Below are positions 12,001-15,000 of a stretch of 34,342 nucleotides of DNA, piece after piece. The stretch comes from Candidatus Krumholzibacteriota bacterium (GTDB taxonomy: Bacteria; Krumholzibacteriota; Krumholzibacteriia; LZORAL124-64-63). Position numbers: made by a program. The stretch's first letter is position 1. Every line of letters begins with the position of its first letter. The stretch is from positions 1 to 34,342 of the forward strand of contig JBDLKA010000032.1 of NCBI GenBank assembly GCA_039714075.1, written 5' to 3'.

Positions 12001-15000
12001 CATCCTGCTGGACGCGGTCCCGGTTTTCGTGGATATCCGGCCCGAGGATCTGAACATCGATCCCGGCAGGATCGAGCAGGCCATCACCCCGAAGACGCGG
12101 GCCATCATGCCGGTGCCCATCTTCGGCGCTCCGTGTGACATGAATCCCATCAACGAGATCGCCGCCGCCCACGGCCTGGAAGTGGTGGTGGACATGGCCC
12201 AGGGCTACGGGACCCTCTACGACGGCAAACCCATGGGATCCTTCGGCCGCATGAGCACCCTGAGTTTCTATCCGACCAAGAACCTGCCCGGCATCGGGGA
12301 CGGCGGCATGGTCCTGTGCCGTGACCAGCGGGACGCCGACCGGATCCGGAAAATCCGCGCCCACCAGGCCGTCCGGGCCAACGACCGGCTTTACACCGGG
12401 TGGAACAGCCGGCTGGACGAGATCCAGGCCATGGTCATCCGGGTCCGCCACGGCCGCTTTGCCGAGGAGCAGGGCGACCGGGACCAGGTCGCCGCCATCT
12501 ATGACGGCTACATTCCGCCGCAACACCGTCTGCAGTTCCCCACCGGTGACGCGGGCATGAAGGTGACCCATCACCAGTACTGGGTCCGCTGCACACGGCG
12601 CGACCAGCTGCGGAACCTGCTGGATGCCGAAGGAATCGACACGGCCGTCTACTACGACCCGCCCCTGCACCGCCATGAACTGGCCGAATACTCGCGCGCG
12701 GGCGGCGGGTTGGAGGAAGCCGAACGGGCCGGCCGTGAAGTCCTGATTCTTCCCATCCACGCGGCCCTTCCCTTCGAGGACGCCCACCGCATCGGAAAAA
12801 CCGTCCAGGAATTCCTGGCCGCCGAAGAAAAATCCGCCAGCAACCAAGGCTGAAAAGAGGTTCCAGTTTGAAGTCCCGGGTTTTGAGTTTCGGCAGCCTC
12901 GCCTCACCCCTGGCCAGAAACCAGACCCAGGCCGTCATCGACCGCATCCAGGAACGCCAGCCCCGCCTGACCTGCCAGTTGAACATCTGGGATTCGCCGA
13001 TCCCACCGGGGGCCAACGCCGACGAACCGTTTGTCGCCGCCAGCCGCGGGGAAATGGAATTCCTGGAGAAACAGTTGCTGAGCGAGCAAGCGCGCCTCGT
13101 GGTGGTCGAAGCCGCCGACATGGTCCTGCCCCTGCCCGAGAATCTCGCGGTCATCTGCGTGCCGGACCGGGCCACCCCTTTCGACGCCTACCTCAACCGC
13201 CAGGGCCTGATCATGGACGAGATGGACCCGGGCAGCTGCGTCGGCGTCCTGTCCATGCGGTCGCGGTCCCAGATGCAGTCCCTGTGGCCGGATATCTCCT
13301 TTCGCATTCTTCGCGGCGGCGTCGACCTGGCCATGGAAATCCACCTGCGCCGTTCCGAAATCGACGGGTTGGTTCTGCCGGCCGCGGTCACCGAACATCT
13401 CGGCATCCAGGGAATCGTCGCGGAGATCTTCGCCCCCGAATTCATTCTGCCCGGCCCGGGACAGGGCACGCTGGTGATTCTCGGCCGCGCCAACGACATG
13501 GAAGCCCGGGACCTGCTGGCCGATCTCCATTCGGTCGCCACGGCCGTCGAACTGGAAACCGAGCAGGCCTTCTGCCGACGCATGATTTCGGACCAGGACC
13601 TTCCCGTCGGCGCCCTGGCGCGGGTCGCCGGCGGCGAAGTCGTCATCACCGGCACCACCGGACCGGGGACCAAACGCATCGCCGTCAACGGCGAGACCCA
13701 CGAGGCCGTGGCGGTGGGCAGCGGTCTCGCGGAGCAGATCCTCTCGCGCGGGGAATCCTTCGCCGATCTTCTGGAAGCCGATTTTCCCGACGGCCTGCCG
13801 GACGAGAACAACGAGGACGTTTCCATCCTCGAGGAAATTCCCGTCGACTCCCAGGACCCCGGCAACGATGAAGAGGACTGGGATGCGAAAGGGTCCGACG
13901 GCGAGGCGGCCTTGTCGGGCCTGGATGAAGATCTGGATGAGCTCGAGAACCTGAAAAGGCTGGAAGACATGGCCGGCATCGAGAAAGCGCCCGCCGTTGC
14001 CGAGGACGAAGACAACGAAGACCTGGGCATGTTCCACGACGAGGAATGATCCCCGCCCTAATTCCCTGCCTCGCCGAGAACCCTTTTCAGGCGCCCGCCA
14101 GGTCTTTGGCGATGCGCGCGGCGGTGAAGGGGTCGCGCATCTGGGCGGTGCCCACCTGGACGGCGACCGCTCCGAGGGCGAAGAATTTCAAGGCATCCCG
14201 GCAATCCCCGATGCCCCCCACGCCGACCACCGGCACCTTGGCCCGCGACACGATTTCATCAACCTTGGCCAGGGCGATGGGACGAATCGCCGGTCCGGAG
14301 TAGCCCCCGAATCTCCGGGGCAGAACGGGCCGTCCCGATTCCAGGTCCACTTCCAGGCCCACCACCGTATTGATGGCGCTTACCGCATCGGCCCCCGCTT
14401 CGGCCGCGGCGGTGGCCAGGGAACTGATATCGGTGATGTTGGGGGTCAACTTGGCCAACAGGGCCCGATCGGGAAGGTAGCGGCGGGCGGCCCCGACGCA
14501 GGCGGCCACCGTGACGGGGTCGCGGCCGAAATCATGTCCACCCTCGGCCACGTTGGGACAGCTGAGATTGATCTCCACTCCGTGCCAGTGGGCCAACCCG
14601 GACGCGACCTGGTGCAATCGGGAAACCATGTCCCCGAATTCCTCCGGTCGCGTGGCCGCCAGGCTGACCACCGTGGGGACACCCTGCTCTTCCAGTGCGG
14701 GCAGGGTTTCGGCCAGGAACTCGTCGAAGCCCACGTTTTCCAGTCCGATGCTGTTCAGGGCCCCTTCGGCGGTCTCCACCAGGCGCGGCATGGGGTTGCC
14801 GGACCGGGCCTGCGGGGTCACGGTCTTGGTGACCACGGCCCCCAATCCCTGATAGGGCGAGGTGAAACCCTCCGCTTTCATCTCGTGACCGGTCAGTCCG
14901 TAGGCGAAGCATCCGGAGGCGGTCCAGATGCGGCCGGGAAACTGCCGTGGCCCCAGGGTGAAAGCAGCGGTCGGGTCTATGGTCCACCAGCCGGGAAGCG

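Follow-up and report, generated by a model that had tools for sequence, protein, structure and literature searches.

The window analysed here is a stretch of 34,342 nucleotides (contig JBDLKA010000032.1) from a Candidatus Krumholzibacteriota bacterium whose genome is denoted G000. A hemC-like gene on its forward strand is referred to here as the degenerate hemC. The local gene order is CoA-binding-like gene, epimerase/dehydratase, NDP-sugar dehydrogenase, DegT, and the degenerate hemC, which converges on pyrD. The features of this region are listed below, where f1 to f9 denote the families of the phylum.

8782-8810, ahead of the CoA-binding-like gene: promoter-like match, by consensus only
8878..9312, forward strand: small CoA-binding-domain-like gene, the probable first gene of the operon (partial TIGR02717 match below cut-off)
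9317..10375, forward strand: NDP-sugar epimerase/dehydratase gene (PF16363, PF01370), in the operon in all 8 carrier families
10372..11697, forward strand: UDP-glucose/NDP-sugar 6-dehydrogenase gene (TIGR03026 over cut-off), in the operon in all 8 carrier families
11705..12853, forward strand: DegT/DnrJ/EryC1/StrS aminotransferase gene (PF01041, E 1.9e-90), the upstream neighbour only in f1
12857..12860, forward strand: ribosome-binding site GAGG, 7 nt 5' of the TTG start
12868..14049, forward strand: degenerate hemC, a HemC-fold pseudoenzyme of 393 aa (open reading frame; Pfam, TIGR, and PDB matches)
12868..13782, forward strand: three-domain HemC fold, residues 1-305, which starts at HemC residue 3 with no leader peptide (AlphaFold2, Foldseek, VIA)
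13117..13119, forward strand: Asp84, the HemC catalytic aspartate, kept only in f1 and f4
13393..13425, forward strand: clade signature segment E176-Q181-V184-E186 (helix, loop, and strand of domain 2), from 109 degenerate sequences
13594..13596, forward strand: Gln243, which replaces the cofactor-anchoring Cys242
13768..13800, forward strand: family-conserved motif that opens the tail, residues 301-311 (54/55 f1 sequences)
13801..14046, forward strand: acidic tail, about residues 311-393, with 33 D/E and 4 K/R in 83 residues, probably disordered (block pLDDT 44-63)

On the reverse strand, the window also contains pyrR-pyrB-pyrC-pyrK-pyrD (14087-20944), where a 688-aa TPR gene with weak BamD/PorW-like matches is located between pyrC and pyrK and is conserved in f1 and f4. 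A reverse-strand open reading frame of about 210 aa (8019-8654) with a hydrophobic N-terminal stretch is conserved in 8 close loci and has no Pfam or NCBIfam match.

The TTG start of the degenerate hemC is conserved among its relatives, and the close relatives are labelled Candidatus Krumholzibacteriia. The earlier note had described a second HemC-fold protein closest to E. coli HemC (E 6e-29) in a genome that also has a normal hemC, and both statements hold. The protein matches PF01379 (E 6.8e-26) and its top PDB sequence match is E. coli HemC (E 3.2e-29). The working hemC (PF01379) of the genome is located on another contig at G000:C20:28879, retains 20 of the 22 checked catalytic or structural residues including Cys242, and has hemB just downstream. 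The profile of the degenerate clade matched HemC alone among PDB sequences (17 sequences), and the clusters from the ESM Atlas all had HemC names, with Krumholzibacteriota or Gemmatimonadota predominant in two of them. The TIGR00212 score of the protein (125.5 bits) is below the curated cut-off of 164. NF002202 (PRK01066), an atypical HemC-fold model of the short chlamydial type, is weakly matched (46.4 bits vs the cut-off of 251); this model has 241 positions, whereas the degenerate HemC retains domain 3.

The predicted structure shares the whole three-domain porphobilinogen deaminase fold with HemC (EC 2.5.1.61; TIGR00212; PF01379 and PF03900; PDB 1PDA, 1AH5). The AlphaFold2 core (about residues 1-303) has a pLDDT of 95.4, Foldseek gives a TM of about 0.84 to HemC, and VIA superposes the model on E. 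coli HemC with Z 34.6 and rmsd 2.6 over 287 residues at about 28% identity. The protein is probably cytoplasmic because no leader precedes the fold. The next structural matches after HemC are type II binding proteins and sensor domains (Z of at most 11). Domains 1-2 superpose on the type II periplasmic-binding-protein fold (Bug/TctC, GlnPQ SBD, BvgS VFT, and LysR effector domains) with Z 9-11, but the identity is 5-16%, a signal peptide is absent, and HemC domain 3 is extra. The matches to solute-binding and sensor domains at Z 10-11 bring in an alternative that we consider unlikely, where the protein is a cytoplasmic type-II binding-protein-like sensor that recognises a small ligand, perhaps a cationic one, in its neutral or acidic two-lobed cleft and either signals to a kinase/PorX or acts on SerS.

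Cys242 of HemC anchors the cofactor, and the substitutions R11H, R155H, R176H, and R132L impair or eliminate activity, as described in passages of PMC3945110 and PMC8561815. At the corresponding E. coli positions, the degenerate HemC has L11, A83, S132, A155, H at 176, and Q at 242, and it retains D84, R131, and R149. The basic set that binds cofactor and substrate (R11, K83, R131, R132, R149, R155, R176, and R232) is reduced to R131 and R149. The protein has the three-domain fold of active HemC in the predicted model and also Asp84, and it lacks Cys242. The same residues were counted in 55 distinct f1 sequences, from which the truncated L027 and identical duplicates had been removed beforehand. 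The reported loss of the cofactor cysteine and most substrate arginines was borne out, with Cys242, Arg11, Lys83, Arg132, and Arg155 each in 0/55. Asp84 is kept in 55/55, Arg131 in 53/55, and Arg149 in 27/55, and a Cys two residues past position 242 occurs in 8/55.

Across the phylum, 109 distinct degenerate sequences from 8 families were compared with 142 canonical HemC sequences. A Cys within 238-246 is found in 18 of the 109, none convincingly at 242. Two f7 proteins have a Cys that aligns to 242 in one alignment and not in another, and their other catalytic residues are absent. R131 is present in 84 and R11 in 17 of the degenerate sequences. Asp84 is present in 66, namely f1 55/55, f4 9/9, and 2 of the remaining 45. 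The kept catalytic aspartate emphasised in the earlier note is therefore a trait of f1 and f4 and not of the others, and it was rejected as a clade-defining residue. Summed over 29 cleft positions, the net charge per family ranges from -2.4 to +2.2, compared with +7.1 (range 4-9) in the 142 canonical sequences. The degenerate HemC differs from HemC in the absence of Cys242, R11, K83, R132, R155, and R176, in a neutral cleft, and in an acidic core and tail. Judged by Cys242, the arginines, and the TIGR00212 cut-off, it falls outside the active HemC enzymes. Three other HemC-like proteins that were outside the tree (P0024, P0046, and P0071) lack Cys242 and keep 17-18 of the 22 checked residues; these are possibly independent losses.

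The acidic tail exhibits a similarly restricted distribution. The D/E share in the 55 f1 sequences is 33-52%, close to the 32-53% reported for the family earlier. The tail is 16-102 aa in f1, 44-102 aa in f4, and at most 26 aa in the other families; tails above that length are a local trait of f1 and f4. The tail was rejected as a clade-defining trait. The motif that opens the tail is found in no sequence of f3, f4, f6, f8, and f9.

The degenerate hemC was found in 61/61 genomes of the family, where 36/36 had been reported, and in 90/91 genomes of the order including G000 (the order consists of one family, and one match is a fragment). A profile of degenerate members was also searched over 208 Krumholzibacteriota genomes, and a best E of 1e-70 or below defined a carrier. 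This threshold beats every canonical match that was identifiable; the rule is partly circular, as the profile was built from the same families. By this rule 183/208 genomes from 8/9 families are carriers (f1 87/91, f3 12/12, f4 9/10, f5 1/1, f6 37/43, f7 3/8, f8 21/23, and f9 13/13), and the profile found the gene in 0/7 genomes of f2. A clean loss is exhibited by G168 (L147, G168:C2:536000-553000), where a wecA-like gene abuts serS and both blocks are otherwise intact. None of the 5 genomes of genus g63 has a match. Contig C1 of G200 (L132-L134) has two intact hemC genes and a dead copy, and G088 has two similar matches to the dead copy on contigs C8 and C33.

Outside the phylum, degenerate relatives were found in groups with members named Eisenbacteria (P0403, P0406, and P0520). 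A further outside group of about 82 matches, one member of which is named Gemmatimonadota, has its own conserved cleft. A scan with an Eisenbacteria protein confirmed no locus among 127 stretches, and a scan with alignment A5 gave 80 loci, none both degenerate and signature-bearing.

The taxonomic distribution of hemB (PF00490) differs from that of the degenerate hemC. The gene hemB was matched in f1 80/90, f2 7/7, f3 1/12, f4 8/10, f8 10/23, and f9 11/13 genomes and was not found in any genome of f5 (0/1), f6 (0/43), or f7 (0/8), a family-wide lack of matches that genome incompleteness does not explain. A hemB match is missing from 78 of the 183 carriers, some of which are incomplete genomes, and this argues that the job of the degenerate HemC is independent of haem. 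Five carriers that are 91-98% complete have hemA in 0/5, hemL over the cut-off in 0/5, and a HemD domain in 1/5. The degenerate gene is the sole hemC-like match in most of f3, in f5, f6, and f7, and in about half of f8. Unlike hemC, it is outside hem operons and is kept where hemA and hemB were not found; haem genes are adjacent to it in 0/109 loci. The scope given in the earlier note was too narrow, as the gene extends through the phylum and is kept even where no haem synthesis genes were found. A HemD-domain gene is located at G164:C15:8380-9066, although neither hemA nor hemB was matched in that genome. An orphan HemD in Bacteroides, considered as an analogy, was unsupported by the literature search.

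The protein might also be a non-covalent binder of tetrapyrrole or haem that acts as a chaperone or as a store for haem salvaged by auxotrophs. The ancestry of the protein favours this, as do D84 and R131 kept in f1 and f4 and the cofactor-binding side (K83, D84, R131, R132, and R155) kept by two Eisenbacteria-type groups. However, the arginine lining is lost and the cleft charge is neutralised in most families, the gene is retained equally in prototrophs and apparent auxotrophs, and haem genes are never its neighbours, which makes such a binder decidedly unlikely.

All degenerate proteins form one clade (FastTree support 0.977, 142 rows) with families that group sensibly. The SH-aLRT supports are 97 for the dead clade, 99 for its intact sister, and 96 for both together, in a chosen subset of 72 rows. 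The dead clade may owe some of its support to long-branch attraction, but the shared signature and synteny agree with it. The sister group (P0018, P0437-P0440, and P0521 by residues) retains 10/10 checked catalytic residues, scores 354.9 bits with TIGR00212, and shares with the degenerate proteins six of the seven signature residues (F105, D117, E175, Q180, V183, and E185). Two Eisenbacteria-type groups are intermediate, as they keep K83, D84, R131, R132, and R155 and have lost R11, R149, R176, and C242. Because most of the signature is present in the residue-intact sister, it would appear to be older than the catalytic loss, although its occurrence in an intact enzyme might reflect lineage alone, without any second function. 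A recent duplication of the genome's own hemC was rejected, since the grouping of f1 dead and f1 working copies has a p-AU of 0.00056 (40 rows). The working hemC genes of the phylum are scattered among outside sequences on a poorly resolved backbone, and they may have been re-acquired. The best explanation is that the degenerate hemC is old and vertically inherited.

The dN/dS of the degenerate core is 0.04-0.44 with a median of 0.12 (20 pairs, 7 families), and that of canonical hemC is 0.10-0.32 (5 pairs; a sixth was saturated). The enzyme fold, the lost catalytic residues, and the purifying selection together mark a pseudoenzyme, and the intact predicted fold and the median dN/dS uphold the earlier description of a repurposed HemC fold rather than a decaying copy. 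That the gene is a relic, decaying or neutral, which travels with the operon is scarcely credible: the long branches, the clean losses in f2 and G168, and the single read-through stops in a few genomes are what such a relic would leave, but the dN/dS is like that of canonical hemC, the frames are open in nearly all genomes, and invariant non-canonical residues are maintained at 20-30% identity.

These non-canonical residues form the signature of the clade. Positions 105, 117, 175, 180, 183, 185, and 227 (E. coli numbering) are variable in canonical HemC and near-fixed in the degenerate proteins. Among the 109 degenerate sequences, E175 is present in 109 (28/142 canonical), Q180 in 104, V183 in 102, E185 in 108 (66/142 canonical), E227 in 103 (22/142 canonical), F/Y105 in 107, D117 in 101, and R/K17 in 86 (30/142 canonical). 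Most of the signature holds in a wider clade of 140 sequences, where E176 is present in 137, E186 in 139, and D/E117 in all 140. Several of these residues (V184, E186, and E228) may be structural. The invariants shared with canonical HemC (R101, P104, P194, G199, and E231) are mostly at hinges, which are named in a passage of PMC3945110; the hinge and core residues in common also include D106, Q135, G197-Q198-G199, and R206, and in f1 D84 and R131.

The cleft behaves differently from the signature. Its residues vary between families while the non-cleft residues are near-invariant, and no single cleft residue is conserved clade-wide, which points to a non-catalytic role. This pattern fits a surface function better than chemistry. 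A new enzyme that uses other residues (E176, E186, D117, R101, and Q199), perhaps in sugar nucleotide or metal chemistry, could explain the near-fixed E176, E186, and D/E117 and would suit the enzymes encoded next to it. We regard it as quite unlikely given that no clade-wide cleft residue exists, that R101, P195, G200, and E232 are common to canonical HemC and mostly at hinges, and that the gene is cleanly lost in some lineages. For a binding-protein-like sensor, the free variation of the cleft across families is likewise unfavourable, although the cleft is conserved within subgroups, including the group labelled Gemmatimonadota, and the fold is similar to type II solute-binding and sensor proteins. 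The invariant E176 may also line the cleft mouth, because HemC residue 175 contacts the product on its exit path in simulations described in PMC3945110.

The gene neighbourhood of the degenerate hemC varies between families. DegT is directly upstream in 54/55 f1 loci, and the remaining one is at a contig end. The DegT neighbour described in the earlier note thus stands for f1, but it is absent as the upstream neighbour from the seven other families, and a DegT-specific role was rejected as the clade-wide function. A dedicated partner of DegT, or a protein that regulates the HemC of the same genome, would be compatible with the f1 loci and with the tail motif restricted to f1. Both are very improbable, as the seven other families have no adjacent DegT and many carriers have no second hemC-like gene. 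A WecA-like GT4 transferase is directly upstream in 44/45 loci of f4-f9. The upstream gene in 9 f3 loci is wecB (5), a dehydrogenase (2), or another gene (2). In f1 and f3 the WecA-like genes lie elsewhere and do not adjoin the degenerate hemC. A GT4 match was found in 22/22 f1 and f3 genomes, some of them with MraY-like matches only; these genes sit on long branches of an unresolved tree and are candidate orthologues. The sugar operon including WecA persists without the degenerate hemC in f2 (0/7; four genomes read) and in G168, which speaks against a tight link between the two.

Downstream, the next gene is serS in 44/45 loci of f3 and f5-f9, and a histidine kinase, PorX, tsaE, and tsaB come after it. 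This order is what a sensor that signals to the kinase/PorX or acts on SerS would predict. However, the serS block is elsewhere in f1 and f4 (on contig C8 in this genome), and G168 retains the kinase and PorX with no degenerate hemC. When the serS block relocated in f1 and f4, the gene remained beside the sugar block; this is weak evidence, the rearrangement being one event.

Other observations concern these neighbourhoods. The PorX response regulator at L147:12610-14175 and G000:C8:24383-25960, located with the kinase, tsaE, and tsaB, is conserved phylum-wide, outside Bacteroidota; the assignment comes from the G168 copy, which scores over the NF052313 cut-off. A protein of 323 aa whose N-terminal region bears a Walker-A-like motif (L073:7376-8347, forward strand) follows the degenerate hemC in 6/9 f4 loci and has a 54% homologue at G000:C97:5713-6654, with no Pfam or NCBIfam match and no meaningful PDB sequence match. 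In f2, which has no degenerate hemC, a conserved Ala/Leu/Arg-rich open reading frame of 400-450 aa is located past wecA on the opposite strand (L151:10786-12135, reverse; L150:5248-6462, forward).

From the sequences and the predicted model, we are highly confident that the degenerate HemC is unable to anchor dipyrromethane or to bind porphobilinogen, is kept folded under selection, and performs a job that does not need tetrapyrrole synthesis. What this job may be can be proposed tentatively. In the reading that we favour, the protein is possibly a non-catalytic subunit, accessory or regulatory, of the cell-envelope glycan-precursor machinery whose operon it ends; the link to glycan synthesis is purely positional. 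It would dock through conserved hinge and domain-2 residues (F/Y105, D117, E176, Q181, E186, E228, and often R17) on a candidate partner such as the WecA-like polyprenyl-phosphate sugar-phosphate transferase or the NDP-sugar dehydrogenase/epimerases. The signature would predate the decay of catalysis and may have served a second function, and the acidic tail of f1 and f4 would be a later add-on. HisZ, which derives from HisRS, offers an analogy of a dead fold recruited as an accessory subunit, and the proposed protein may work as HisZ serves HisG. HisZ is a catalytically inactive paralogue that acts as the regulatory subunit of ATP phosphoribosyltransferase, according to PMC10795190. Unlike the degenerate HemC, it has an unrelated fold, and its partner is proven whereas the partner here is only proposed.

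A more speculative history, which we hold to be rather doubtful, is that the ancestral HemC of Krumholzibacteriota and Eisenbacteria moonlighted. Its second surface would have coupled envelope glycan synthesis or PorXY signalling with tetrapyrrole status; only the second function would then have been kept while catalysis decayed stepwise, and a working hemC would have been re-acquired from outside where haem synthesis exists. If true, the intact, half-dead, and dead grades record a complete transition from enzyme to regulator and a non-catalytic role for the HemC fold.

The literature search on inactive, orphan, or HemC-like homologues and on Krumholzibacteriota (25 of 68 papers) found no description of such a family in its coverage, which excludes most subscription papers; the one "paralog" passage in PMC13564367 concerns HemN. 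The degenerate proteins are apparently an undescribed HemC pseudoenzyme family of several lineages. TIGR00212 exceeds its cut-off of 164 in 6 of 8 other degenerate members tested, and several are named hydroxymethylbilane synthase in public records; such misnaming inflates the tetrapyrrole synthesis predicted for these uncultured bacteria. HemC is regarded as an enzyme with one function; a dead form that selection maintains throughout a phylum, also in lineages with no hemA or hemB match, points to an unknown use of its fold. Since it is retained under selection even in lineages seemingly without haem synthesis, the HemC fold appears to have a second job, and with grades that run from intact through partly to fully degenerate, the origin of a pseudoenzyme can be tested directly.
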